From assembly GCA_003645455.1 (NCBI GenBank), contig QNFE01000001.1, forward strand, positions 10,359 to 74,358: DNA of 64,000 bases, read 5' to 3'. Shown piece by piece: positions 6,924 to 62,905 of the stretch. Under the pieces are notes generated by a model that saw only the letters and a list, made by a program, of their open reading frames with translations, searched no databases and was not told where the DNA came from. How positions within the stretch are numbered: the stretch's first letter is position 1; each line of letters begins with the position of its first letter. Origin of the DNA: Gammaproteobacteria bacterium (GTDB lineage: Bacteria > Pseudomonadota > Gammaproteobacteria > QNFE01). A program made the position numbers and the translations under genes.

Positions 6924-8002
6924 CTTATTTTTAAGGATGATAGTCCCACTAAAACCAAAATGATTGAAACTATCCAAAAACGCACTATAATTCGAGGCTC
7001 CATCCATCCCATCATTTCAAAGTGATGATGCAGCGGTGCCATTTTAAATACTCTTTTCCCTCTTGTTTTGAATGACACCACTTGAATAATAACACTTATT
7101 GTCTCAGCCACAAAAACACCTGCCATAATAAATAAAACTATCTCTTGGCGAATTATAACTGCTACAATTCCCATTGAGGCTCCAATTGATAATGAGCCAA
7201 CATCACCCATAAAAACTTCGGCAGGATAGGCATTAAACCACAAAAAACCAAGACCTGCTCCCACCATAGTTCCACAAAAAATAGCAAGTTCTCCTGTGCC
7301 TGAAATATGTGGAATTCCCAAATAATTTGAAAAATAAAAATGCCCTGTGACATAGGCGAAAATACCCAGTGCACCGCCTATCATAACAGAGGGCATAATC
7401 GCTAAACCATCCAGACCGTCGGTAAGGTTTACGGCATTTGATGAGCCCACAATTACCACGAATGCTAAGGGTATAAATAAAAATTCCATTTGCCACTGAA
7501 AATCTTTTACATAGGGTAAAATTAGAGTTGTTGTAATATCCTTATCCACGAATAAATAAAGATAGAACACAGCAACAAGAGTTAAAATAGATTGTAAGCT
7601 AAATTTTACACCAGCACTTAGCCCTTTTGAGTTACCGTACTTTAATTTTTTATAATCGTCAACAAAGCCTATCATGCCAAAAGATAGGGTTACAAATAAT
7701 GTAATTAAAATATAAACATTAGTTATATCTGCCCACAGTAGGGTAGATACACTCATAGATAACAATAACATTATGCCTCCCATAGTTGGTGTTCCTGTTT
7801 TTTTCAGATGGCTTTGGGGGCCGTCATCACGAATGCTTTGTCCTATTTTATTTATTTTTAAATATTTTATTAAAAATGGTGCCATAATAAATGATAATAT
7901 TAAAGCAGTTAAAACTCCTAACACGGCTCGCAGAGTAAGATATTGAAAAACATCAAAACCGCTATGGTATTGCGATAAATATTCTGTAAGGTAAATCAGC
8001 AT
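6920..8002 (-). CDS. mraY: Phospho-N-acetylmuramoyl-pentapeptide transferase
   Basis: Ten-transmembrane MraY/WecA family protein of 360 aa, conserved in the dcw position. Confidence 0.9.
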
Positions 8003-26047: not shown

Positions 26048-27409
26048 ATGAATAAAGATTTACAAATTATAATCTTAGCAGCAGGCAAGGGCACACGGAT
26101 GGTGTCCGATAAAGCTAAGGTGTTGCATAAGTTAGCAGGAAAGCCCTTATTAGGATTTGTCATTGAGGCGTCTTTGTCCCTTACAACAGAGGTAATTGTT
26201 GTCGTCGGGCACCAAGCATCAGAGGTTAAAAAATTAAATTATCCTGTTAAATGGGTCCAGCAAAAAGAACAACTTGGCACAGGACATGCAGTGCAAATGG
26301 CAAACCCTTATTTGGATGGCAACAAAAAATGTTTGATTTTATATGGCGATGTGCCACTTATCAAACCTACTACCATAAAAAAACTTGCAGATTTATCGGA
26401 TAAAAATACCATCTCACTTTTAACCTTGATTATGAAAAATCAACACGGTTATGGGCGAATTATCCGCGATGAATCAAACAACATAACCTCAATAGTGGAA
26501 GAAAAAGATGCCAGCGACCTACAAAAACAAATCAAAGAAATCAATACTGGGATTTTATCAGTTACTAATGATAATCTAATTAAATTATTACAAAATTTAA
26601 AATCAGACAACTCACAAGGGGAATATTATTTAACAGATATAATCGCCCAAGCCCATCAAAATGGTTTAAAAACAATCTCGGTGGCATCCCATTCGGTGCA
26701 TGAGGTAGCAGGGGTAAACGACAAAAAACAACTTGCTGTTTTGGAGCGAGTTTATCAACAAACCTGTGCCAAAGATTTAATGGTAGCGGGTTTAACTTTG
26801 TCCGATTATCGCCGTTTTGATTTACGAGGCACTTTAAAATTTGGCATGAATTGTATAATTGATATCAATGTTGTGTTTGAAGGTGATAATAAAATTGGTG
26901 ATAATGTTTATATTGCTCCCAACTGCATTTTAAAAAATGTTGATATAGGGGACAATGTAATCATCAAAGCCAATAGCATTTTAGAGAGTTGCAAGGTGTC
27001 AAACAATGCCACAGTTGGACCTTTTAGCAGGTTGCGCCCAGGGGCAGAGCTTAAAAATAATGCGATGGTAGGAAACTTTGTTGAGGTTAAAAAATCAATA
27101 ATAGGCGAGGACTCCAAAGCATCTCATTTGGCATATATCGGCGATGCCACCATCGGAAAAAATGTCAATGTAGGAGCAGGAGTCATAACCTGTAATTATG
27201 ATGGAGCGAATAAAAATAAAACGATTATTGAAGATGATGTTTTTGTCGGCTCTGATACCCAATTAGTGGCCCCGGTTAAACTCGGCAAAGGTTCCACCAT
27301 CGGAGCAGGCAGCACAATAACGACAAATGTCCCAAAAAAAATGTTAGTTTTATCAAGAATAAAACAAAAAGAAGTGCCGTCATGGCAAAGACCCAAAAAG
27401 AAAGAGTAA
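26048..27409 (+). CDS. glmU: Bifunctional UDP-N-acetylglucosamine pyrophosphorylase / glucosamine-1-phosphate N-acetyltransferase
   Basis: N-terminal nucleotidyltransferase motif (LAAGKGTRM) and C-terminal left-handed beta-helix hexapeptide repeats. 453 aa. Confidence 0.9.
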   Translation: MNKDLQIIILAAGKGTRMVSDKAKVLHKLAGKPLLGFVIEASLSLTTEVIVVVGHQASEVKKLNYPVKWVQQKEQLGTGHAVQMANPYLDGNKKCLILYGDVPLIKPTTIKKLADLSDKNTISLLTLIMKNQHGYGRIIRDESNNITSIVEEKDASDLQKQIKEINTGILSVTNDNLIKLLQNLKSDNSQGEYYLTDIIAQAHQNGLKTISVASHSVHEVAGVNDKKQLAVLERVYQQTCAKDLMVAGLTLSDYRRFDLRGTLKFGMNCIIDINVVFEGDNKIGDNVYIAPNCILKNVDIGDNVIIKANSILESCKVSNNATVGPFSRLRPGAELKNNAMVGNFVEVKKSIIGEDSKASHLAYIGDATIGKNVNVGAGVITCNYDGANKNKTIIEDDVFVGSDTQLVAPVKLGKGSTIGAGSTITTNVPKKMLVLSRIKQKEVPSWQRPKKKE

Positions 27410-27418
27410 AAAAATCCC

Positions 27419-27600
27419 GTCATTGCGAACGGAATTATAAAATCTCAAAAAATCCCGTCATTGCGAGCGGAACGAAGTGTAGCGAAGCAATCTCGTCAAA
27501 ACGGACGGATAATAACGAGCAAAAAGAACCCTCGTCATCGCGAACGAGCTTGCGAGTGTGGCGATCTCATAGTAGCAGACGGATAATAACAATAGAATAC
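27419..27600. repeat. Cluster of about 2.3 tandem copies of an approximately 78 bp element of the 'cccgtcattgcgagcgg...gcaatctc' type in the glmU-glmS spacer
   Basis: Direct repeats 'aaaaatcccgtcattgcgaRcgga' at 27415 and 27444. Units at 27448-27516 and 27528-27597 both end in 'gacggataataac'. Each unit carries an imperfect internal palindrome (attgcgagcg ... cgaagcaat). Confidence 0.6.
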
Positions 27601-35509: not shown

Positions 35510-37384
35510 TTATACCAATCTCTCGGTATGATAGGCAGAACTCATAGCGGACTGCATCGTGCGAACAATTTCAAAGGCATCTTTTAAATGTTTTCTCTCC
35601 AAGGAGGATAGGGTGTCAGGCTCGACATAATTATTGATTGTCTGTTTTGCTTCTACTTGTTTTAACTGTTGATTAAGGCGAATTGTTGAGATAAAATCAT
35701 ATGACTCTAATAAATCTTTTTTGCCTTTTTTGCTAAGGGTTTTGGCTTTTGATGATAATTTTAACCTATCTATCGTGTTAATTGTATCGGTGATACCAGC
35801 TGATAGGGCATACACACGAGCCAAGTCTGTAATGGGAGTGACTCCTCTTTTTTTCATATTGAGCGCTTTGGATTCTGTGCCGTGTTTTTCTAAAACAAAA
35901 GATCTAAAAATTCCTAATGGAGGATGATAGTGTAGGGCATTAGCTGCCATATGGGATAAAAATATACTATTGCCTTTGATTTTTTTACCAATGGATTGTT
36001 TTAAATCATCTAATAAATCCTGATTGCCATAGATAAAGTCTAAATCAAAAAAAATCGAAGATAACATCAGAGCTTTGGGTTCCGGAGTGTGAATCCATTT
36101 ATCAAAATACCCCTTCCAAACATCAAGACTTACACACCATAGAGGGTTGGTTGCCATCACATCGCCAGGGCAATACACATAACCACATTCATTTAAACCA
36201 TCACAGACAAATTTGCTAATTTTCTTAAAATATTCGCTGTGTTTTTCGTCATCATAATTATTATCAAGGATTATTAAATTATCTTGGTCAGAAAAGGCAG
36301 TTTGTTCTCCTCGTGCCTGTGAGCCTGCGACCACCCAGGCATAATCAACCTCAGATATGCCAAATTCTTTTTCAGCGAGAATCAATAATCTACGATTAAT
36401 ATCTCGTCCGATAGAGCTTATGGCAGATCCTATATCATAGGCTGTCATCCGATTTCTAACCATCGAGGCAAAAGTTGGCGGAATCTGCAAGGCAAGTTTG
36501 GCTAATTCATCAACAGAATTAGCACGATTTATTTCATTAACAAGATAAATAGTGTTATAACTTTGGGCGCGAATTAAATCATTAACTGTGATAATGCTTA
36601 AAACTTTTTGATTCTCATCAACAATAGGTAAACGATGAATATTGTGTTTTGTCATCAACAGCAAAGCATCAGAGGCACGAGTGTTTTTATCAATCGTAAT
36701 CAAAGATGTTGTCATAACAGATTTAATTGGTTGTTTGATATCAACAGCAGAAGAGACAACTTTGGTGCAAAATGTGCGATCTGACACTATGCCAGATAAT
36801 TTATCCTCATCCATTATCAAACATGAGGTAACTGAATTTTCTGTCATTTGTATCGCAACATTTTGAATTGAGGTGTTAAGATCTAATTTTAAAATGTGTT
36901 GTTTGTCTTCGACTAATTCTGATGCACTTTTTGTGAATAAAATATTAGCTGTGGTATCGTGCACCTCTCGTAGGGCAATTTTTAAACGGGAACGTTTTTT
37001 ACGATCAAAAAATGCTTTTATTTGGGGGAATTCTACCGCAATATCAAGCAAAGTTTTGGCAGGAATTTCATACAATAGGCAATCTTCAATGGCACGGATA
37101 GGCATGGTAACCTCGCCTGTTACAAAAGCGGACCTATAACCAAACCAATCCCCTCCATCAAAGTGGCTGTATAATTTGCCATCACTATCTAAAACCTCAA
37201 CCGCTCCTGTTCGCAACAAATAAACGGTTTCATTTGTCTGCCCTGACTTTAAAATTATTTCACCACGGCGGGCATATTCAATCTTTAAGCTTTTAGCAAC
37301 AATATGTAAAGCATCAGTGGATAATTTATCCAAAGGAGGACAACTTTTTATGTAGTCAATAATTTCAATTTGTTCAATTTCCAT
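35510..37384 (-). CDS. Cyclic-nucleotide-binding / tandem CBS / DUF294 nucleotidyltransferase-domain protein
   Basis: Three regions in series: an N-terminal cNMP-binding fold, a central CBS pair, and a C-terminal GlnD-like nucleotidyltransferase (DUF294) with its substrate-binding domain. 624 aa. Confidence 0.75.
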   Translation of the reverse strand: MEIEQIEIIDYIKSCPPLDKLSTDALHIVAKSLKIEYARRGEIILKSGQTNETVYLLRTGAVEVLDSDGKLYSHFDGGDWFGYRSAFVTGEVTMPIRAIEDCLLYEIPAKTLLDIAVEFPQIKAFFDRKKRSRLKIALREVHDTTANILFTKSASELVEDKQHILKLDLNTSIQNVAIQMTENSVTSCLIMDEDKLSGIVSDRTFCTKVVSSAVDIKQPIKSVMTTSLITIDKNTRASDALLLMTKHNIHRLPIVDENQKVLSIITVNDLIRAQSYNTIYLVNEINRANSVDELAKLALQIPPTFASMVRNRMTAYDIGSAISSIGRDINRRLLILAEKEFGISEVDYAWVVAGSQARGEQTAFSDQDNLIILDNNYDDEKHSEYFKKISKFVCDGLNECGYVYCPGDVMATNPLWCVSLDVWKGYFDKWIHTPEPKALMLSSIFFDLDFIYGNQDLLDDLKQSIGKKIKGNSIFLSHMAANALHYHPPLGIFRSFVLEKHGTESKALNMKKRGVTPITDLARVYALSAGITDTINTIDRLKLSSKAKTLSKKGKKDLLESYDFISTIRLNQQLKQVEAKQTINNYVEPDTLSSLERKHLKDAFEIVRTMQSAMSSAYHTERLV

Positions 37385-37409
37385 GATTGTTTTTAAAAAA
37401 ATAAAATGG

Positions 37410-37784
37410 CTATTTAATAATTAAATCCAATGCTTTGGATAGAGTTAAGAAAAAACCAATCATTGCGATTAACATCACCATATTTTTATTCAAAGCCTGT
37501 TGAATTATTGTTTTTATGTCGCTTTTTAAAAGAGCAAATTCACCTTTTAAACCAGTAAACTCATCTTTTAAACCAGTAAACTCATCTTTTAAACTTGCTA
37601 CATCAGAGGTTACCTCATCTAATTTTTGATCCAAGTGATTGATATGGTTATATTGAGATTTTAACAATAAGGTATTTATATCTTCTTGTTTTAAGCCCTC
37701 ACCACGGACGAATCGCTCCTCTATTTCTTTTAATTTTGGAGTTATCATCTCGATTAACATACTGTCTATATTAGTTTTATTCAT
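37410..37784 (-). CDS. Coiled-coil protein with C-terminal transmembrane helix (DUF1640-like)
   Basis: Heptad-rich sequence with an in-frame 21 bp tandem duplication encoding LKDEFTG twice, and a hydrophobic C-terminus. Confidence 0.45.
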   Translation of the reverse strand: MNKTNIDSMLIEMITPKLKEIEERFVRGEGLKQEDINTLLLKSQYNHINHLDQKLDEVTSDVASLKDEFTGLKDEFTGLKGEFALLKSDIKTIIQQALNKNMVMLIAMIGFFLTLSKALDLIIK

Positions 37785-37827
37785 AGGTTTTTATAAATCA
37801 TAAATAGGGTAGCATAACAAAAAATAA

Positions 37828-38805
37828 TCAACAAATATCAAAAATGTTTTTAATTAAAACAGGACCACGGTAAATTAAACCTGTAAAAATCTGCACCAGA
37901 GAGGCACCAGCTTTGAGTTTATCATCGGCAGATTTTTTATCCATAATTCCACCTGAGGCGATTATTGGTAAATCTCCTTGATATAAATCTGCTAATTTTT
38001 TGATTATTTTGGTTGTAGTCTCGTTTAATGGTTTGCCTGATAAACCGCCGGTTTGTTGATAACTGTGTTGGACGGTGGTGTTGGTGGCAATAATGCCGTC
38101 CATTTTGCTGCCTCTTATAATTTTGGCAACTGTTATTAGTTGAGTATCATCCATATCTGGGCTTATTTTTACGACTAAGGGCGTCCATTTTTTGGTTTGG
38201 TTGAATATTTTTATTTGCTCTTGTTTTAATCTTGTAAGGAGCTTTTGAAGGTTAGCAGGTTTCAACAAATCTCGTAAATTTGGAGTATTAGGAGATGATA
38301 AATTTATACTAATATAATCGCAATGTTGGTATGAAACTTGCAAACAATATAAATAATCGTCAATGGCATTCTCGTTTGGAGTGTTTTTATTTTTGCCGAT
38401 ATTAATCCCGATAATTCCACTAAAAGAACTTGATTTTAATTTTTTAATCGCATATAAAATCCCTTTGTTATTAAAACCCATCCGGTTGATGATAGCTTGT
38501 TCTTTTTTATAACGAAAAAGCCTCGGTTTGTCGTTACCTTGTTGTGGTTTTGGAGTTAAAGCGCCGATTTCAATACAACCAAACCCAAGCGATTCTAACG
38601 CATCAATATAATCACCATTTTTATCAAAACCTGCTGCTAACCCAATTTTGTTAGGAAACTGCAAACCCATAACCTCCACAGGTTTTTTATATTCAACCAA
38701 GCTAAAATTAGCCCAGATTTTCAGCATTTTTAGGCTAAAAGAGTGAGCGACCTCAGGGGGTAGGGCAAACAAAAAAGGACGAGATATTTTATAAAGTGTT
38801 TTCAT
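37828..38805 (-). CDS. pyrD: Dihydroorotate dehydrogenase (quinone), class 2
   Basis: Membrane-associated N-terminus typical of class 2 DHODH, 325 aa. FMN-binding motifs are present (GLAAGFDKNG, GGIMDKKSA). Confidence 0.9.
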   Translation of the reverse strand: MKTLYKISRPFLFALPPEVAHSFSLKMLKIWANFSLVEYKKPVEVMGLQFPNKIGLAAGFDKNGDYIDALESLGFGCIEIGALTPKPQQGNDKPRLFRYKKEQAIINRMGFNNKGILYAIKKLKSSSFSGIIGINIGKNKNTPNENAIDDYLYCLQVSYQHCDYISINLSSPNTPNLRDLLKPANLQKLLTRLKQEQIKIFNQTKKWTPLVVKISPDMDDTQLITVAKIIRGSKMDGIIATNTTVQHSYQQTGGLSGKPLNETTTKIIKKLADLYQGDLPIIASGGIMDKKSADDKLKAGASLVQIFTGLIYRGPVLIKNIFDIC

Positions 38806-38863
38806 AGGTTAGCTGTCCCCAATAATTTTTATATCATCAGCTGGTGCTTGTTTGTAATTTTTT

Positions 38864-39961
38864 CTAATCATAGTTTTCGTCCAATAGTTTAATTAGAGTT
38901 TTTGCATCTGGTAAAATATTTTTATATTTTTTTGGCAGTTGTGAGCTGGTATTAAATGTAGCAACCCCCATAGCTTTATTAAAATCTCTGAATGCAAATT
39001 CTACGGTTTTATTTTTCTTTTCTTTGCAAAGGATTATACCTATTGATGGGTTTTCGTGTTCTTGTTTTATGTATTCGTCAAGGGCAGAGAGATAAAAATT
39101 CATCTTTCCTAAATATTCTGGTTTGAATTTTCCTGTTTTTAACTCTATGGCTACTAATGCTTGTAAATTACGATTGTAAAACAATAAATCAACAAAATAT
39201 TCTGTATCATCAACTATTATTCTGTATTGGTTGCCAATAAATGCAAAATCAGCCCCAAGTGTTGAGATAAATTTTTTAATATTTTGCACGATTTCATTTT
39301 CTAAAACTCTTTCGTTGTCTTGCTCTTCGTCTGTAAGACTTATAAAATCTAACAAATAATGGTCGTTAAAGTTTTGTAATGATTTTTGTCTTTGTTGGGT
39401 GTCACTTATTGTTTGGTTAAAATTATTTGGCAACATTCCCTGTTTTTCAAATAATTTATTTTTTAGATGCTGTTTTAAAACTCTAACAGTCCAAAACTCG
39501 TCTGTTGATTTTTTGATGTAAAACAACCTCTCGTTGATTTTTTTTGTCTTGGCGATTATCTCGCAGTGAGCGGTAAAACTTAATTTTGTAAAACAATCAA
39601 CTAATAAATTTATATCAATATCTAATTGGTCAGTCAATGACTGGCTAATTGATTTTTTGTTATTTTCGGTAATTTCATCTATAAAATATAAATTCCATTC
39701 TTCATAAAATGCTCTCATATTTTTTAAATTTGAATATGAAAATCCTCTTAAACCACTCAATTCAATTTGTAAATCGTCTGATAGTCTTTTGATGGTTTGA
39801 TTGCCCCATTTTTCAGTTGCAACTTTTTTGGATATTATTTTTCCTACATTAAAATATAAGTTTAATAACTCTTTGTTAGCAACTTTGGCAACTTCATAAC
39901 GACTTTTTATTATTTGTTGCTTTAAATTTTTAAGAATCTTGATATAATTGTCAATAATCAT
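38864..39961 (-). CDS. YhcG/DUF1016 family PDDEXK nuclease
   Basis: N-terminal YhcG-type region (LSGLRGFSYSNLKNMRAFY). C-terminal PD-(D/E)xK core (DLLFYNRNLQALVAIELKTGKFKPEYLGKMNFYLSALDE). Confidence 0.7.
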   Translation of the reverse strand: MIIDNYIKILKNLKQQIIKSRYEVAKVANKELLNLYFNVGKIISKKVATEKWGNQTIKRLSDDLQIELSGLRGFSYSNLKNMRAFYEEWNLYFIDEITENNKKSISQSLTDQLDIDINLLVDCFTKLSFTAHCEIIAKTKKINERLFYIKKSTDEFWTVRVLKQHLKNKLFEKQGMLPNNFNQTISDTQQRQKSLQNFNDHYLLDFISLTDEEQDNERVLENEIVQNIKKFISTLGADFAFIGNQYRIIVDDTEYFVDLLFYNRNLQALVAIELKTGKFKPEYLGKMNFYLSALDEYIKQEHENPSIGIILCKEKKNKTVEFAFRDFNKAMGVATFNTSSQLPKKYKNILPDAKTLIKLLDENYD

Positions 39962-39966
39962 TATGT

Positions 39967-40176
39967 TTATCCCTGTTTTAATTTTATAAAAATATTGACA
40001 CTAACCCTTTGCAACATCTTAAACATGCCATCACCATCAGGACACTTTTCCGCTATGTTGTGACTCTCATGCAAATCCAAAATATAAATTTTATCAAAAC
40101 CTGCTGCCAACCCAATTTTATTAGGAAATTGCAAAGCAAACAAAAAAGGACGAGATATTTTATAAAGTATTTTCAT
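39967..40176 (-). pseudogene. Mosaic gene relic: pyrD 5' end fused to a pyrD internal piece and a piece of the Type IIG RM gene interior
   Basis: The 69 aa ORF reads MKILYKISRPFLFAL (pyrD aa 1-15), then QFPNKIGLAAGFDK (pyrD aa about 48-61), then IYILDLH...CPDGDG...VSVNIFIK (RM enzyme aa about 600-645). At DNA level it is a diverged copy of 38762-38805, then 38620-38664, then 41690-41812. Confidence 0.7.
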
Positions 40177-40217
40177 TTTAAATTTTTATTACACCAAAGT
40201 TTCATAAGAAGGACCTA

Positions 40218-40318
40218 AATAATTCTATAAAATCCGTCACTGCGAGACAAAGCCCTGTCAGTCTCGGATACTACCAAGAGATTGCCGCGGTCGCAAGCTC
40301 GCTGCAATGACGGGTTTT
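40218..40318. repeat. About 100 bp element with terminal inverted repeats (aaatccgtcactgcgag ... ctcgctgcaatgacgggttt), related to the glmU-glmS spacer repeats
   Basis: Shares the 'ccgtcaYtgc...gcgagcttgcga...gcaatctc' core with the 27419-27600 elements. It sits immediately 3' of the RM gene stop. Confidence 0.55.
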
Positions 40319-40319
40319 T

Positions 40320-43300
40320 TTATTTATCCTCAATAATTTTTATTTTATCAATCTGTTGCATTATTTTATTTGTTTCAAAAAGCACATAAATAATTTTTTG
40401 ATAGTGAGTTATGTCTGTGTTTGATAACTCGTAATCTTGGTCTTTGCGAGATTTGAGCCATTTTTGTAAAGGCTGATAACCGCCGATAAAAAAATTCCAA
40501 GCGATAGATGGCACATTATCAAAATATTGATTTTTATTTATCCACACTTTTCCTGTGCCATCTTTTTCTTTGCTTTCTATAAAAGTATGTTTTTCTACTG
40601 TCGCATCTCCATCTCCTTTAAATGGACTTATTATATCCGTTAATTCTATATTTTCCATTAAATGCAACTTGCGAAGTGTTGCACCTTTTTCAATACATTG
40701 CCAAAATGTTTTTTTATCCGCAGGATATGGCACACGAGGGAAATCAATTTTTAAAAACTCTTGGTATTTCTTGCGGTATTTTGGTGAATGCAACACAGCA
40801 TAAATATAATCCAAAATATCAATCGGCGATAGGTAATTTTGAATTTTTTCTGCTTTAAATTCTAATTTTAAATTGTCTGCTATTTTTTCAACAATTTTCA
40901 TATCCAAGTTAGGTTTTCTACTCTTTTCTGTGAACATTCCATCTGATTCTTTGTCTGGGTAAAGATATAACGGACAAACATAATCTCCTCCTTGCATGCC
41001 AGGGCGAGACCAACTTCTAAAATCAATTATATTTGCAGAAACAAAACAAGGTGAAGCATTTTTCTCTACAAAACCTCTTTTAAAAACCAATCCAATATTT
41101 TCAGTTTTTAGAAAATGAGACATAACCTCGCCTCGTGGCATACACAAAAAACCTTTTGATTTTTTGGAATAATAAGTCCATCTATTATCAAATGGACGAT
41201 ATGATATTTTTGTTATTTTTTTAAAATCAACTCCTGTTTTAATTAAATCTTTTTTTGCATATGAAATTTTCCAGTCACGAACATCCTTGCCTAATTTAAA
41301 ATGCTCTCTTGCCTCCTCGTCATCTAATTTTAAAAATTTTTGAATAGTTTTTTTAACCTCATCTGCTGTTTTATGAATAGTAAAGTTATCACGAGCTGTT
41401 ACTATGCCAACAGAATTGATAGGAAATAAATCTGTCAAAACAAAACCTTTATCATATTCGGCTTGGGCTTGGTAATCTTTGGGTTTAAAAAAATAATAGG
41501 GTTCTTGTGGTTTTAATTTTTCAAATTGAATACTTGTCAAATCATTTTCTAATAAAAAACCATATTTTGCTTGGCGTTTTCCGTAGAGATCAAAATGAAA
41601 AACTTTGGCTAATTTATTTGATAAGTTTTTGTTTTTTGCTGACAAGGGGACATGTCCCCTTGCTAAACCATGTCGTTTTTTCTTGATGAAAATATTGATA
41701 CTGACCCCTTGCATAATATCAAATACATTTTGATCTTTTGTGCCATCAGGGCAGACTTCCTTTTTTTTACTGTTGCCGTGTAAATCTATGATATAAATTT
41801 TATCATAGGTTTTTAAGAGATTGTGCCTCATGCCACGAAAGGTGGGGTTATCTAAAAAGCCGTGAGGGTTGATGAAGGCTAAAATTCCTTCGCCATTTTT
41901 TTCTATTAAATTTTGTGAATATTTAATAAACTTTACATAATCATCGTTAAGCCATTTTGAATTTTTTTCTTGTAATTTGCCACCTGTTGGCTCTTTTTTA
42001 TAATCATCTAATAGGTTTTCTATCCATTTGCCTTTGTTTGATGATTCACCGGCATAAGGCGGATTGCCTAAGACAATCATAACAGGGGTGTCTTTTTTAA
42101 CTCTATCGGCGGCACGAGACTCATCAGATAACCATTTGGCTCCAAATAATGACAAACCAGCATATTCGTGTTCTGGCTCTAAACTATTCGTCAAAAATAC
42201 ATTAAAACGATTATTGTTTTTGTCGTCTTTTTGATAACCTGTTGTTTTTAATAACATTTGTAATTTAAGATGACACATAGCATAGGGGGCAAGCAGTAAT
42301 TCAAAGCCGTTTAATCTGGGAATTAAATCTTCATCAACATATTTATGCCAACCGCCGGAGTTCGTGGTTTTTATGATATCGGCGATATATTTTATCACCT
42401 CACATAAAAAAGTGCCTGTGCCGCAGGCAGGGTCTAAGATTTGCACTTTATGAACTTGTTTGGTTGTTTTGGTTTGAGTTTTAGGGTCGTCAAATTTTAT
42501 ATTAACCATGCTTGTGTCACAAATCCCATCGCTTATTTTAAAGTCTTTTTTTAAAACATCATCACAAGCTTTGATGATAAATTTAACAACAGGTTCCGGG
42601 GTATAATAAACTCCACGAGATTTTTTTAATTGGGGGTTATAATTATGCAAAAATGTTTCATAAAAATGAATCATCGGATCTTGTGTGGCAGTTTTTTTGC
42701 CAAAGTCTTGTAGGATATTAGATAAATTAGCATGACGGAAAATATCAACCAAAGCATCAACAATCCAGATAATTTCTGTGTCTAAATTTGCACCGCCAAC
42801 ATATTCAAACAAATGTCGTAAAAATGGATTAGTGCGAGGCATAAGCTCCATTGCCTCATATCTTGAAAATGATTGCGGTGTTTTGTCGTGTAATCTGGCA
42901 GCAAACAAACCATAAGTTATAGTCTGGGAATAAATATCAGCAAAACTTGCCTCATCTAAGTCTTTTATTAGTATTTTTTGAAAACTAGTAAATTGCTCAT
43001 AAAGATTAGTGTTTTTGCAATCATCGCCGCAGGTTAAAGCTTTGTAAATTGCATCTTTTAATGTTTGGGCTTTGAGTGCCATAAGCGAGGCTAATTTTTC
43101 GGCTGTGTTTATTGTTGTGCCGTTATAAGCACAAAAGTTTTTTAAAAGATTTATAAAAGGTGCAAAGTTATCATTGATGGGTTTTATTTTATTGTTGGTT
43201 ATCGTAGCAATTTGAATAGTTTCAAGTTTTTTGATTTTATTGTCATCAGTTTTTTGATAGAATCTAAATTCAATATAATTAGTTGTCATTACATTGTCAA

Positions 43301-43610
43301 GTCGGCTGACATATCGCAATAATTGATTGTTGTTGTCTCCTTTTTCTAAGCCATCTAATAGGTTGTTTTTTAAATCTTTGGCTTCAATATAAGCGGTTGG
43401 AACTTTGTTTTTATTCTGCACTAAAAAATCAGGAGCACCACATTTTTGTTGTTTTGGTTCGTTGGTTATTGTAATATCTTTGATAAGGTTTTCTATAAGA
43501 TTTTTAAAAGCTGGACGATAGCTGTGTTCGGTAGCCTTGCCACTTTGGAAAAGATCTGTTACATTTTTTAAATATTCTTTGATATATGTTATATGCTTAG
43601 GTGGCTTCAT
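40320..43610 (-). CDS. Single-chain restriction-modification enzyme of Type IIG/IIL (MmeI-like) architecture: N-terminal PD-(D/E)xK nuclease, gamma-class N6-adenine methyltransferase, C-terminal target-recognition domain
   Basis: 1096 aa. PD...EAK nuclease motif near aa 60 (GAPDF...YIEAKD). Methyltransferase motifs YYTPEP, DPACGTGTFL (motif I) and GNPPY (motif IV). C-terminal TRD-type signature 'YIYAVLHSPKYRKKYQEFLKIDFPRVP'. No helicase domain, so not Type I, III or ISP. Confidence 0.7.
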   Translation of the reverse strand: MKPPKHITYIKEYLKNVTDLFQSGKATEHSYRPAFKNLIENLIKDITITNEPKQQKCGAPDFLVQNKNKVPTAYIEAKDLKNNLLDGLEKGDNNNQLLRYVSRLDNVMTTNYIEFRFYQKTDDNKIKKLETIQIATITNNKIKPINDNFAPFINLLKNFCAYNGTTINTAEKLASLMALKAQTLKDAIYKALTCGDDCKNTNLYEQFTSFQKILIKDLDEASFADIYSQTITYGLFAARLHDKTPQSFSRYEAMELMPRTNPFLRHLFEYVGGANLDTEIIWIVDALVDIFRHANLSNILQDFGKKTATQDPMIHFYETFLHNYNPQLKKSRGVYYTPEPVVKFIIKACDDVLKKDFKISDGICDTSMVNIKFDDPKTQTKTTKQVHKVQILDPACGTGTFLCEVIKYIADIIKTTNSGGWHKYVDEDLIPRLNGFELLLAPYAMCHLKLQMLLKTTGYQKDDKNNNRFNVFLTNSLEPEHEYAGLSLFGAKWLSDESRAADRVKKDTPVMIVLGNPPYAGESSNKGKWIENLLDDYKKEPTGGKLQEKNSKWLNDDYVKFIKYSQNLIEKNGEGILAFINPHGFLDNPTFRGMRHNLLKTYDKIYIIDLHGNSKKKEVCPDGTKDQNVFDIMQGVSINIFIKKKRHGLARGHVPLSAKNKNLSNKLAKVFHFDLYGKRQAKYGFLLENDLTSIQFEKLKPQEPYYFFKPKDYQAQAEYDKGFVLTDLFPINSVGIVTARDNFTIHKTADEVKKTIQKFLKLDDEEAREHFKLGKDVRDWKISYAKKDLIKTGVDFKKITKISYRPFDNRWTYYSKKSKGFLCMPRGEVMSHFLKTENIGLVFKRGFVEKNASPCFVSANIIDFRSWSRPGMQGGDYVCPLYLYPDKESDGMFTEKSRKPNLDMKIVEKIADNLKLEFKAEKIQNYLSPIDILDYIYAVLHSPKYRKKYQEFLKIDFPRVPYPADKKTFWQCIEKGATLRKLHLMENIELTDIISPFKGDGDATVEKHTFIESKEKDGTGKVWINKNQYFDNVPSIAWNFFIGGYQPLQKWLKSRKDQDYELSNTDITHYQKIIYVLFETNKIMQQIDKIKIIEDK
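41643..41662. repeat. 20 bp perfect palindrome 'caaggggacatgtccccttg' inserted in-frame in the RM gene
   Basis: Encodes ...RH-GLARGHVPLS-AKNK... A GC-rich island in an AT-rich gene. It is a variant of the 22 bp palindrome at 44389 and 50525. Confidence 0.6.
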
Positions 43611-43999
43611 ATTTGCTGTTGTTGTAAGTCTGACACAATTTCGGCAATTTTAATAAAATCGTTATCATTGTGAACCAAGATTAAATCATTTTCAATGGCA
43701 CAACAGGCGATAAGGCAATCTATTGTGGAGCGAATTGTTATACCTTTTTGGCGGCATTTCATATAAATGTTGGCAGAGTTTTCATAACTTTTTAAATTAT
43801 CTTGCAATGAATAAAATTTTTGTTGATTTAGTATGTTTTTTAATTTGTTAAAAAGTGATGTGTTTTTTGCACCCTGTAAAACTTCCATATAAATTACACC
43901 AGTTATTGCAGTTTGTTTTTTTGCATATAATGTTTTTATAAAATCAGTAGAATTATTATTAAATAAATCAATCCAAATAGAAGTATCAATTAAATACAT
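43607..43999 (-). CDS. vapC: PIN-domain toxin (VapC family)
   Basis: N-terminal 'MYLIDTSIWIDLF' PIN signature with conserved acidic residues. 130 aa. Its stop overlaps the RM start codon as ATGA. Confidence 0.75.
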   Translation of the reverse strand: MYLIDTSIWIDLFNNNSTDFIKTLYAKKQTAITGVIYMEVLQGAKNTSLFNKLKNILNQQKFYSLQDNLKSYENSANIYMKCRQKGITIRSTIDCLIACCAIENDLILVHNDNDFIKIAEIVSDLQQQQI

Positions 44000-44012
44000 T
44001 TATGCAAAGGTT

Positions 44013-44267
44013 TTATTTATATTTTGGCAGAGAGCGGGAGCGCATTGCTTTATAATCGTAGCCTTCAAAAAATGGACTTTCTCCATCTAATGATTTTATG
44101 AGCCAATCTAAACCATTGTTTTTGTGATTTTCAATATATTCGTGCAAAGCTTTGTCAATTATCGCTCTTTTGCTTTTAAGTTTGCTTAATTTTAAAGCTT
44201 GTTGCACTATATTTTCATCCAAAACAACATTTGTGCGGTGTAGGGTTGGTAACATTTTAACTCTCAT
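44013..44267 (-). CDS. vapB: VapB-type antitoxin (ribbon-helix-helix, Rv0623-like)
   Basis: 'TNVVLDENIVQQALKLS...KRAIIDKALHEYIE' resembles RHH antitoxins. It lies 13 bp upstream of vapC. Confidence 0.6.
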   Translation of the reverse strand: MRVKMLPTLHRTNVVLDENIVQQALKLSKLKSKRAIIDKALHEYIENHKNNGLDWLIKSLDGESPFFEGYDYKAMRSRSLPKYK

Positions 44268-44388
44268 GTATTGAAAAATGTGTATAATAACATAAATTAT
44301 GTGTATATGTTATTTTTTAATGTTATAAATTCTCATTATATTTTGGATAATATTTATTAAACTGGCAACAACAAACATTTCTGTATTG

Positions 44389-44410
44389 ACAAGGGGGCAT
44401 GCCCCCTTGT
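44389..44410. repeat. 22 bp perfect palindrome 'acaagggggcatgcccccttgt' (intergenic, upstream of vapB)
   Basis: Perfect palindrome centred on GCATGC. An identical 22-mer occurs at 50525-50546. Confidence 0.65.
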
Positions 44411-44543
44411 TAGTTCTTGTGTCCGATTGAAGACATGTATTTTTAACTGCCGAGTTAATATATAACTCAATCATAAAGCATTCTCATCTAATGTTTTATT
44501 TTGCTGTTGCTTGGTTTGATATTTTAAAATAATATATTCCAAA

Positions 44544-48760: not shown

Positions 48761-50524
48761 ATGGCAAATTCAACAAAATTAAAAACTCACAAATTTGATG
48801 CGATTATTATCGGTGCCGGAGGAGCGGGTTTAAAAGCCGCTTTGCAAATTGGCAAATCAGGGGCAAAGGTTGCTGTTATCTCAAAAGTATATCCCACTCG
48901 CTCTCATACTGTATCCGCCCAAGGTGGCATAAATGCGGCTTTGGCAAATGTTAGTGAGGATAACTGGCACTGGCATATGTATGACACCATCAAAGGATCA
49001 GACTGGCTCGCCGACCAAGATGCCGTGGAATATATGTGTCAAAAAGCACGCGAGACGGTGATAGACTTAGAACATAACGGTGTGCCATTTTCAAGGCTTG
49101 ATGATGGCAAAATATATCAGCGAAAATTTGGCGGACAAAGCCAGAATTTTGGCAAAACCCAAGCGACACGAACCTGTGCTGCCGCCGACCGGACAGGACA
49201 TGCAATTTTGCATTCTTTATATCAACAAAACATAAGATATAAAACTCACTTTTTTGATGAATATTTTTGCATTGATTTATTAAAAGATAAAACAGGGGCG
49301 ATAGCAGGGGTTATGGTGTTATCAATGGCAACAGGCGAACCTTTGATAATTCAAGCAAAAGCGACAATAATTGCCACAGGAGGTGCAGGGCAAATTTTCA
49401 ACACCACGACAAATGCCACAGTTAATACAGGGGACGGATTAGCCATGGCATTGCGTGCGGATATTGCTTTGGAGGATATGGAATTTTTTCAATTTCATCC
49501 CACCGGTATCGCAGGCAAGGGGATGTTATTATCAGAGGGCGCAAGGGGTGAGGGCGGATATTTATTAAATGGCAAAGGCGAGAGATTTATGGAAAAATAT
49601 GCGCCGAATGTCAAAGATCTCGCCAGCCGTGATGTTGTTAGTCGCTCGATATATTTGGAAGTCAAAGAGGGTAGAGGCTGTGGTAAAAACAAGGATCATG
49701 TTTTGTTGCAGGTTCATCATATAGGAGCAGACAAGGTTAAAAAAAGATTGCCAGCCATCCGTGATTTAGCGTTGAGTTTTACCGGGCTTGATATGGCATA
49801 TGAGGCAATTCCGGTTTATCCGACCGCTCACTACACAATGGGTGGCATTCCTACTAATAAATATGGCGAGGTAGTGGATGACAAGCACCAAAGCATAACA
49901 GGCATATATGCAATCGGCGAGTGTGCTTGTGTTTCAGTCCATGGAGCAAATCGTCTGGGGGGCAACTCATTATTAGATATAGTTGTATTTGGCAAAATAG
50001 CAGGTGAGCATTGTATAGAATTTTTAAAAACAAAACCACAACACAAAAAATTAGACGATAAGATATTACAAAAAATTGAAAAAAGGTTTTGGAGTTGGGA
50101 TAATAATGATGGCATCGAAGATGTGTATCAACTAAAAACCGAATTAAAAGAGACAATGGATAAATATTGTAGTGTTTTTCGCACCCAGAAAATTCTGGAT
50201 GAAGGTGTAGAAGAGGTTAAAAAAATAAGCGAGAGATTTAAAAATGTCAAATTATCTGATAGATCAAAAACTTTTAATATTGCCAGAATTGATATTTTTG
50301 AAACTGAAAATTTAATTCAAAATGCCTTGGCGACAATCATATCTGCCGCCGCACGCCATGAAAGCCGTGGTGCTCACAGTCGCGTAGATTATCCAGAACG
50401 AGATGATAAAAATTGGTTAAAACATAGCCTATTTTATCTCAAAGATTTATCCTTAAAATACAAAGATGTCAATATGAAACCTGTAAGTGTTGATAGTATT
50501 CCACCAAAAAAGAGGGTGTATTAA
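48761..50524 (+). CDS. sdhA: Succinate dehydrogenase flavoprotein subunit
   Basis: FAD-binding N-terminus ([12 protein letters not shown]) and the conserved covalent-flavin histidine context ([10 protein letters not shown]). 587 aa. Confidence 0.92.
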
Positions 50525-50546
50525 ACAAGGGGGCATGCCCCCTTGT
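50525..50546. repeat. 22 bp perfect palindrome 'acaagggggcatgcccccttgt' in the sdhA-sdhB spacer
   Basis: Identical to the 22-mer at 44389-44410. It begins 1 bp after the sdhA stop. Confidence 0.65.
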
Positions 50547-50596
50547 CAATTCGCTGGCTATTTTTTTATTTTTACATAGTTTTTTAGAGAATTAAA

Positions 50597-52376: not shown

Positions 52377-52863
52377 TCAAGTTGATAAATATACATACAG
52401 AGTAATATGGTCGGAGGAAGATCAGGAGCATATAGGGCTTTGTGCTGAGTTCCCAAGCCTAAGTTGGTTGTCCGAGTCACCACAAAAAGCATTAGAAGGC
52501 ATCACAGATGTTGTAAAAAAGTGCATAGAAGATATGCAACAACACAACGAAAGCATTCCGCAACCAATCGCATACAAAAAATATAGTGGAAAATTTAATG
52601 TGAGACCTTTGCATAATTCAAGTGCTGTTTAGAGAGGACAGAAAATAGTGCATTTTTATAGCAAAAATGAGGAATATGGTAATTCCCTTTGACGAATTTT
52701 TGCTATGAAAAGGTGCATTTTATGTGTTTTATAAATTGTGCTTGAATTATGCAAAGGTCTCAATGTAAGTGTGCCACCAGAGGTTCACAGAAGCCTTTGT
52801 ATCCAGGCCGCTGAATCAGGAGTAAATTTTAACTCAATGGCGAGCGCTAAATTATCCCTGTAA
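52369..52863 (+). pseudogene. hicB: HicB-family antitoxin split by a 160 bp MITE-like insertion
   Basis: The N-terminal HicB domain (YTYRVIWSEEDQEHIGLCAEFPSLSWL) ends 8 codons into the MITE's left end, with the premature stop at 52630-52632. The C-terminal RHH region (PEVHRSLCIQAAESGVNFNSMASAKLSL, stop at 52861) resumes in frame immediately after the insertion. Confidence 0.7.
52602..52761. mobile_element. MITE-like element (160 bp) with 21 bp terminal inverted repeats and a 5 bp target-site duplication
   Basis: Terminal inverted repeats 'gagacctttgcataattcaag' and 'cttgaattatgcaaaggtctc'. The flanking 'aatgt' is duplicated (52597-52601 and 52762-52766). A nested internal palindrome is present (atagcaaaaat...atttttgctat). 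No transposase gene is in the window. Confidence 0.7.
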
Positions 52864-62722: not shown

Positions 62723-62792
62723 GAGACCTTTGCATAAATCAAATGCTGTTTAGAGAATGCAGAAAATAGTGCTTGATTTATGCAAAGGTCTC
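62723..62792. mobile_element. Second, internally deleted copy (70 bp) of the MITE-like element, in the rlmH-ppsA spacer
   Basis: Terminal inverted repeats 'gagacctttgcataaatcaa' and 'ttgatttatgcaaaggtctc'. The flanking 5 bp 'attta' is duplicated (62718-62722 and 62793-62797). The core 'gctgtttagagaatgcagaaaatagtgc' is shared with the copy at 52602-52761. Confidence 0.65.
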
Positions 62793-62905
62793 ATTTAGAT
62801 ATTTCATACAAAAAATATTTTATAAGATAATTTGTTTTGTTCTTTTGTGCTTGATTTATTTAACTATTTTTATTACAATACTTATTTTTTTACATAAGTT
62901 GAATT

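Follow-up and report, generated by a model that had tools for sequence, protein, structure and literature searches.

A pyrD and type IIG RM mosaic in a gammaproteobacterial defence islet: a probable recombination scar beside the remains of a split RM gene

Between the YhcG gene and the type IIG RM gene of an AT-rich gammaproteobacterium lie 210 bp in which pieces of pyrD and of an RM gene follow one another within one open reading frame. How did such a segment arise, and is it a gene? The window, i.e., the whole stretch of 64,000 nucleotides that was analysed, is part of a 98-kb metagenome contig (ENA ERZ27227324 k141_393510) from a MEGAHIT assembly. All of the genes at the locus are on the minus strand, in the order VapB and VapC, type IIG RM, a 143-nt spacer, a 69-aa ORF, YhcG and pyrD; VapBC, the RM gene and YhcG together form a small defence islet upstream of pyrD.

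The locus and the make-up of the segment

The features on which the argument draws are listed below, with pyrD'' standing for the pyrD-derived pieces, resident RM for the intact RM gene, and RM' for a second, decayed one.

37828-38805, minus strand: pyrD, class-2 (quinone-dependent), intact (Pfam DHO_dh); the source-like copy for pieces A and B
38809-38862, minus strand: RM'-C tail, the last ~17 codons and stop of RM' (ending DDIKIIGDS), followed by CCT and the pyrD ATG; matched to the 3' end of the resident RM gene
38864-39961, minus strand: YhcG/DUF1016 PD-(D/E)XK nuclease gene, intact (Pfam YhcG_C 1.5e-53, DUF1016_N 1.4e-29; PADLOC candidate PDC-S02 7.5e-119)
39967-40096, minus strand: RM'-N tail, the decayed last ~48 codons and stop of the N half (nuclease-methylase) of a type IIG RM gene that had been split, as read from tblastn and family comparison
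39967-40176, minus strand: 69-aa hybrid ORF, its pieces in one frame, MKILYKISRPFLFA, then LQFPNKIGLAAGFDK, then IYILDLHESHNIAEKCPDGDGMFKMLQRVSVNIFIKLKQG and a stop
40089-40096: junction 2 (pyrD''/RM'), a clean 8-bp microhomology, TTTTATCA
40089-40135, minus strand: pyrD'' piece B, equal to pyrD nt 141-187; 44/47 (93.6%) against 38619-38665, E 7e-15
40136-40176, minus strand: pyrD'' piece A, equal to pyrD nt 1-41 (codons 1-14); 40/41 (97.6%) against 38765-38805, E 2.6e-14
40177-40319: spacer from the RM stop to the pyrD'' ATG, 143 nt (3 nt in the other copy), with a GC-rich hairpin repeat, CCCGTCATTGC..GCAATCTC..GACGG
40320-43610, minus strand: resident type IIG RM gene (1096 aa), intact, with an MmeI/Eco57I-type methylase and a Type_ISP_C specificity domain (PADLOC REase_MTase_IIG, 1087 bits)
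41644-41661: GC palindrome AAGGGGACATGTCCCCTT, in frame (LARGHVPLS) in the linker of the resident RM gene, at the exact place where YhcG nests in split relatives

The YhcG protein of the window retains all invariant columns in an alignment with 30 homologues, and the resident RM protein has the Pfam domains N6_Mtase, Eco57I, MmeI_Mtase and Type_ISP_C. An Rfam search of 37000-44500 gave no match, and scans for promoters and terminators returned counts not above chance (13 promoter-like sites versus 9.2 +/- 3.1 expected). Other repeats were seen in the window. A 124-aa ORF downstream of pyrD, which has no confident Pfam match, contains three 21-nt tandem repeats (37522-37594) encoding LKDEFTG, LKDEFTG and LKGEFAL, and the stretch 52601-52762 forms an extended, imperfect palindrome of 163 nt that is 74% self-complementary and to which a second sequence 10 kb off is related (62723-62793, 86% over 65 nt).

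That the 210-bp segment is a patchwork of pyrD and RM sequence, as an earlier note on this DNA had proposed, was borne out by self-BLASTN of the window, a repeat search and direct reading of the sequence, the same three sources from which the pyrD'' matches were taken. Pieces A and B are the only gene-fragment duplications within the 64 kb. Piece A departs from pyrD in a single residue change, T3I, and its similarity to pyrD ends precisely at the ATG, which also opens the 69-aa ORF. Piece B runs from the last base of pyrD codon 47 to the first base of codon 63, and its differences from pyrD (3/3) are synonymous transitions. The earlier note had put every piece at 85-90% identity, a uniformity that the pairwise alignments did not reproduce: the pyrD pieces stand at 94-98% and the RM part is far lower overall, its best ungapped blocks in self-BLASTN against the resident gene being 31/39 (79.5%) and 23/27 (85%).

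The two joins within the segment differ in kind. At junction 1, between A and B, the start of pyrD does meet the interior of pyrD as first described, although the proposed join at a shared 'gcaaac' is not a one-copy microhomology: 99 nt (33 codons) have been lost in frame and both TTTGC copies were retained (minus strand GTTTGC/TTTGCA). Junction 2 is a true 8-nt overlap, in which the BLAST segments 40089-40135 and 40070-40096 share TTTTATCA, and where GAT AAA A reads Asp-Lys in the pyrD frame as well as in that of RM'; the corresponding stretch of the resident RM gene lies at about 41675-41805, not at 41690-41812 as had been thought.

Remains of a split RM gene around YhcG

The RM part of the segment, homologous over 39973-40098 to residues 602-646 of the resident RM protein, was originally taken for a diverged copy of the interior of that gene. 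The degree of similarity does not bear this out. The protein identity is 51% with one 3-codon gap (tblastn E 3e-10 against a 1.6-kb region), and the DNA identity is 76% overall with small gaps, or 64-67% by codons with the one 3-codon gap; at 66.7%, the nucleotide identity to the resident gene sits within the range of 60-68% found against the genes of three unrelated organisms (L170, L084 and L091). Residues 602-646 are moreover the most conserved stretch of the family, homologues from other phyla being 80-90% identical there to the resident protein. When the 32 sites conserved in at least 90% of 118 RM family members from many phyla were compared, the RM'-N tail had lost 14 (12 by substitution and 2 in the 3-codon deletion), versus 0-3 in members of the family. 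The changes include DLHGN to DLHES, KKKE to NIAE, NVFDI to GMFKM and QGV to QRV. The tail thus combines homology to the family, in the region covered by PADLOC REase_MTase_IIG and Pfam Eco57I/N6_Mtase, with loss of its invariant residues, and with so many conserved positions gone RM' is a long-dead pseudogene.

Other roles for this piece were considered and set aside. A functional diverged allele, for which a dN/dS of about 0.15 might speak, was rejected on the loss of the family's invariant residues. Nor was the piece accepted as a silent cassette, or as a donor for phase variation of the RM gene, since it is decayed and direct in orientation, belongs to the conserved methylase region and has no invertase in its vicinity. 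A DGR-like or otherwise mutagenic copy was likewise dismissed, the differences being transitions that are not adenine-specific, with no reverse transcriptase nearby.

An explanation for the form of the tail came from homologues of the window YhcG examined in their own contigs. In four of them, YhcG interrupts an RM gene of this family, each time at one and the same linker, with RM residues 1 to ~646 followed by YhcG and then by RM residues ~652-664 to the end. The loci are as follows, together with an unsplit comparator.

L084, 4135-8925: split locus, YhcG 66% identical to that of the window
L091, 5882-9905: split locus, YhcG 60% identical
L150, 9-1370: split locus, YhcG 76% identical, partial
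L170, 3106-6922: split locus, YhcG 66% identical
L173, 46-3243: unsplit comparator

The N halves end with IFVKKR (L084), KKRSK (L091) or KKQR (L170), and their stop codons are 0-3 nt from, or overlap, the YhcG start; the C halves open with MTKSKKLAEVFHF.., MKNDKKAQVFHF.. and MAKQNKKLAQVFHY... Together, an N-tail and a C-head amount to 11-14 residues, versus 11 residues for the uninterrupted linker in 63/69 scored family members. The RM'-N tail of the window ends in the same manner, with NIFIKLKQG and a stop 5 nt ahead of the YhcG ATG, and it bears CAGGGA, the YhcG ribosome-binding region. By this agreement with the N-half ends of the split relatives, the left boundary beside YhcG is natural, not a junction made here, and the piece is the tail of the N half of a different, split RM gene, still attached to its YhcG.

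The 58 nt between YhcG and pyrD hold a remnant of the other half, which the earlier note had not seen. In the repeat search, 38809-38839 matched the 3' end of the resident RM gene (40320-40350) at 25/31 positions with the stop codons in register; it is the best match to the RM 31-mer in the whole window, and the gap outscores all 1403 null windows. The same tail matches the 3' ends of the L084 and L091 homologues at only 15-16/31. The C-termini of RM' (DDIKIIGDS) and of the resident RM protein (IDKIKIIEDK) also have in common a rare 3-residue extension beyond the usual end of the family. At the protein level the match was not significant (tblastn E 17), and the tail was accepted on DNA-level statistics and position only; orthology of RM and RM' likewise depends on those 31 nt at the 3' end, together with the extension common to both, as the RM'-N piece is no closer to the resident gene than to foreign homologues. 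An RM 3' end immediately before pyrD implies that the stop of a former RM-type gene stood 3 nt ahead of the pyrD ATG, and that YhcG now sits inside its remains. The register match and the shared extension suggest further that both copies at this locus are of the form 'RM end + pyrD start'. The RM'-C tail holds GGGGA, a Shine-Dalgarno-like motif for pyrD, and the fragments of RM' may owe their persistence to carrying the ribosome-binding regions of the live YhcG and pyrD genes.

In the first of these copies the RM end and the pyrD'' start are further apart. The matches flanking the spacer have offsets of 1511 and 1371, which differ by 140 nt, and the pyrD similarity ends at its ATG because copy 1 carries a 140-nt insertion that includes the hairpin repeat. 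The hairpin folds at -35.3 kcal/mol, with a z of -1.5 only. Repeats of this kind, AAAAAAACCCGTCATTGCGAGCG..GCAATCTC..GACGGATAATAA, were seen once at 40225-40319 and three in tandem at 27409-27590.

The resident RM gene is itself unusual at the linker in which YhcG nests elsewhere, being 26 aa there, 15 longer than the 11 aa of most scored members. On its two sides this linker has sequences, KKRHG and AKNKNLSNKLAK, that look like the N-tails and C-heads of the split genes (KKRHG compared with KKQR or LKQG and a stop, and AKNKN..KLAK compared with MAKQNKKLAQ), and the TTA codon that follows the flank corresponds to the TAA stop of RM'. These likenesses, which are suggestive only, allow that the intact resident RM gene may be a former split gene that was re-fused. 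The linker also contains the GC palindrome, a member of a genome-wide type of repeat family (TTGACAAGGGGRCATGYCCCCTTGTCAA) with 3 copies in the window versus 0.06 expected. The earlier note had correctly seen that the RM-derived piece ends near this palindrome: homology ends at about 41675, close to the place where YhcG nests in the split relatives, and it is exactly there that the palindrome sits. The other two copies, at 44385-44411 and 50524-50550, are intergenic, one after sdhA and one at the edge of the VapBC/RM islet.

Ages of the pieces and origin of the mosaic

The two parts of the mosaic have aged very differently. By codon alignment RM' differs at 46/126 nt and pyrD'' at 4/88 nt, the four being transitions, of which three are synonymous and one is a replacement, in 29 codons (the hybrid codon that straddles junction 1 having been assigned by reading the sequence). 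Had pyrD'' decayed as RM' did, with about 40% of codons hit, the binomial probability of at most one hit in 29 codons would be about 7e-6, and the one-sided probability that at least 3/4 of the pyrD differences are synonymous is about 0.03, as about 21% are expected if neutral; these rate comparisons are rough, the samples being tiny (88 nt of pyrD, and about 126 nt plus 54 nt of RM'). Such unequal decay, with pyrD'' fresh and RM' heavily decayed, points to a join younger than the death of RM'. The mostly synonymous differences, in turn, suggest that the pyrD'' fragment diverged elsewhere while part of a working gene, i.e., that it came from a working, diverged allele.

Taking these results together, we consider it probable that the segment is a non-functional scar, at which two diverged 'RM then pyrD' loci were joined head to tail by one-sided homologous plus illegitimate recombination. 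From the homologies, junctions, unequal decay and split-gene architecture observed here and elsewhere, we infer the order of events, the two-lineage origin of the versions and the mechanism. In an old version, B, RM' would have been split in two halves by the nested YhcG; the halves would then have died and been mostly deleted, leaving ~48 codons of the N half and ~17 of the C half, as YhcG and pyrD stayed intact. Another version, A, from a related lineage, would have had an intact, unsplit RM gene, the 143-nt spacer with its hairpin repeat, and pyrD. A single recombination would have joined the two, one end being anchored by ordinary homology and the other being illegitimate at TTTTATCA, with pyrD codon 62 of version A joined to RM' codon ~603 of version B; either side may have been the incoming one. 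The mechanism would be homology-facilitated illegitimate recombination (HFIR; defined in PMC3240628) or an equivalent microhomology-mediated template switch, and its product would read RM, spacer, pyrD(1-62), then RM'-N tail, YhcG, RM'-C tail and pyrD. Simultaneously or later, a 99-nt in-frame deletion between the two TTTGC pentamers would have removed pyrD codons 15-47.

Much of what the earlier note had supposed, namely illegitimate scarring or import from a relative with pyrD and the RM gene adjacent, survives in this proposal, being supported by the 8-bp joint, the working-allele character of pyrD'' and the RM 3' end that stands beside pyrD twice. What had to be revised is that the RM piece is the tail of a split RM', that its left end is natural and that the parts are of unequal age. 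Several points weigh against the proposal, the small samples and the in-frame character of both junctions among them. Junction 1, in keeping both repeat copies, is not a textbook slippage product, and neither parental arrangement was found in the collections searched. A search of 5.8 billion proteins gave one pyrD relative at 69% identity and the rest at or below 56%, and a scan of genome contigs with pyrD gave at most 54%; the neighbourhood of the 69% relative has nothing in common with the window, and synteny comparison yielded no parental arrangement. No RM relative exceeded 55% identity and no YhcG relative 67%, save for the partial 76% YhcG on the 1.4-kb contig L150.

The competing account that best fits the layout is a tandem duplication in situ, in which an unequal exchange at the 8-bp microhomology would have doubled, in a single lineage, the unit that starts at RM codon ~603 and ends at pyrD codon 62; YhcG would later have gone from one copy and most of the RM C half from the other, with decay of the redundant pieces. 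Junction 2 has the topology of the known microhomology tandem-duplication junctions, as the end of the unit (pyrD codon 62) meets its start (RM codon ~603) at 8 bp, in direct orientation and with the same gene order; both copies have an RM end beside a pyrD start; and the 15-aa longer linker with its split-gene-like flanks would let the intact RM gene be a re-fused copy. A simple tandem duplication predicts parts of equal age, however, and its two 'copies' are very different in age and divergence: 46/126 nt for RM' versus 4/88 for pyrD'', and 14/32 residues lost in the former versus 1/29 changed in the latter. The synonymous bias of pyrD'' is not predicted by decay in situ either, and refreshing by homologous recombination cannot reach the junction, yet the junction-adjacent piece B has no replacement at all. 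We regard a duplication of this kind as improbable. Far more doubtful still is that the mosaic is an artefact of assembly or amplification: the sequence does come from a metagenome (a k141 contig), and strain mixtures can give chimeric joins in a MEGAHIT contig, but the junction overlaps of 8 nt and 0-5 nt are far under the k-mer length of any assembler, and the surrounding genes are intact and collinear. None of the pieces (41, 47 and about 125 nt), moreover, is as long as k = 141, and since their sequences depart from those of the intact genes they cannot be copies of them.

Whatever its origin, the segment might work as a gene, with the 69-aa ORF a new small fusion protein or a leader ORF translationally coupled to YhcG. 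Such a role would explain the in-frame junctions and the conserved pyrD-derived part, with its low dN/dS. The frame is open through both junctions, the distance from its stop to the YhcG ATG is like the spacing of N half and YhcG in L084, L091 and L170, and a promoter-like site spans the pyrD and RM' pieces. The in-frame junctions could hint at selection on the ORF, but this double outcome has a 1 in 9 probability by chance. Against a working product there stand an ATG with no Shine-Dalgarno-like motif before it (AATAAAAATTTAAAATG), an RM-derived half without the invariant residues of its family, promoter-like sites in numbers not above chance, and an occurrence limited to this contig and another on which the neighbouring genes are the same, i.e., a single contig lineage. 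With no Pfam match for the ORF, conservation, family membership and translation signals all fail to mark it as a protein-coding gene, and we hold its function to be quite unlikely; the gene call is best regarded as spurious and is corrected by the present finding. The promoter-like site itself is on the minus strand at 40081-40110 (TTGGCA, 18 nt, TATATT; 10/12), about 120 nt upstream of YhcG, so placed that the -35 falls within pyrD-derived sequence and the -10 within sequence derived from RM'.

Known systems and the nested YhcG gene

Work on HFIR has reportedly been carried out in Acinetobacter, S. pneumoniae and P. stutzeri, and the scar proposed here would have its two hallmarks: one novel joint at a short microhomology, and a homologous flank on the other side. 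The 8 bp of TTTTATCA fall within the 3-10 bp of microhomology between otherwise unrelated arms that mark an HFIR-type joint. Within the window, the synonymous character of 3/4 differences and the unequal age of the two sides speak for two lineages, so that one side may be foreign to the other. Displacement relics attributed to HFIR have been described at the T6SS and Rhs loci of V. cholerae, where they comprise 3' fragments and orphan immunity genes (PMC5361080), and, as in those, a new conflict or defence allele is upstream here, with the remains of the old one pushed downstream beside intact genes. Unlike those relics, the segment, whether incoming or outgoing, overshoots into housekeeping pyrD and duplicates its 5' end, and the displaced RM' would already have been long dead.

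The split RM genes also bear on how often YhcG has entered this linker. The N half of L170 shares 87% of its protein and 80% of its DNA sequence with the unsplit P0166/L173 gene, against which it has a clean 1157-nt insertion, and is only 61-63% identical to the N half of L084. As the L170 host is so much closer to an unsplit gene than to a split one, the insertions are not a single inherited event, and at least two of the four are independent. The same site is occupied in hosts that are not each other's closest relatives (L084, L091, L150 and L170), and in the relic of the window. L084 has, in addition, a second, truncated ORF with DUF1016_N only (7097-7663, 188 aa) after the full YhcG, its stop overlapping the start of the RM C half, which suggests that the cassette may have inserted repeatedly at one site. 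Further close relatives of this YhcG occur as orphans, with housekeeping genes on either side (L171), or next to methylases or other defence genes.

The YhcG/DUF1016 nuclease, uncharacterised though very common, recurs within RM operons, and PADLOC counts it among its defence candidates. DUF1016 has been described as enriched beside RM genes, with DUF1016 genes between hsdM and hsdS (PMC9881135). In the literature searched on DUF1016/YhcG and on genes in pieces and homing endonucleases, YhcG was not described as a fixed-site, gene-splitting insertion in type IIG genes. The nearest likeness is nrdA of phage Aeh1, split by mobE (PMC3045599; reviewed in PMC2988022), where a nuclease gene is also nested at a highly conserved site of its host gene. 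There, as here, the host gene is broken into two ORFs whose stop and start codons lie close together or overlap; in the YhcG/RM case no host residues are lost, and the occurrences are independent by the comparison of L170 with the unsplit gene and the other split host. Unlike the homing endonucleases of genes in pieces, YhcG is a PD-(D/E)XK/DUF1016 protein of a kind not known as a homing enzyme, and its hosts are bacterial RM genes and not those of a phage.

It is conceivable, if doubtful, that YhcG is a homing-like, site-specific selfish cassette that invades the RM linker, the most conserved one of these genes. The mosaic would in that case be collateral damage from a double-strand break at or close to the target of the nuclease, repaired by microhomology-mediated template switching that took in pyrD sequence, and the intact RM gene, with its palindrome at that very site and its split-gene-like linker flanks, would be re-fused and immune to a new invasion. 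If so, nested YhcG would repeatedly split type IIG RM genes in two, leaving methylase and nuclease on one side and specificity on the other. An equally good reading of the arrangement is a working RM operon of two subunits to which the nuclease is accessory, as with the DUF1016 genes between hsdM and hsdS.

On the reading that we prefer, that of a scar between two versions of the locus, the mosaic is a relic of an ordinary sort that probably has no function, and the nested YhcG cassette is a more interesting by-product of its study than the scar. The mosaic would be a small, unusually legible fossil of the turnover of a defence locus, where a new RM allele comes and the old one is displaced, and in which fragments of the old RM gene would persist only where they bear the ribosome-binding sites of live neighbours. 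Nested YhcG at one precise linker in at least four unrelated genomes, for its part, makes for a testable hypothesis on the family: it may be a selfish element that behaves in a homing-like way, or may serve two-piece RM enzymes as an accessory subunit.
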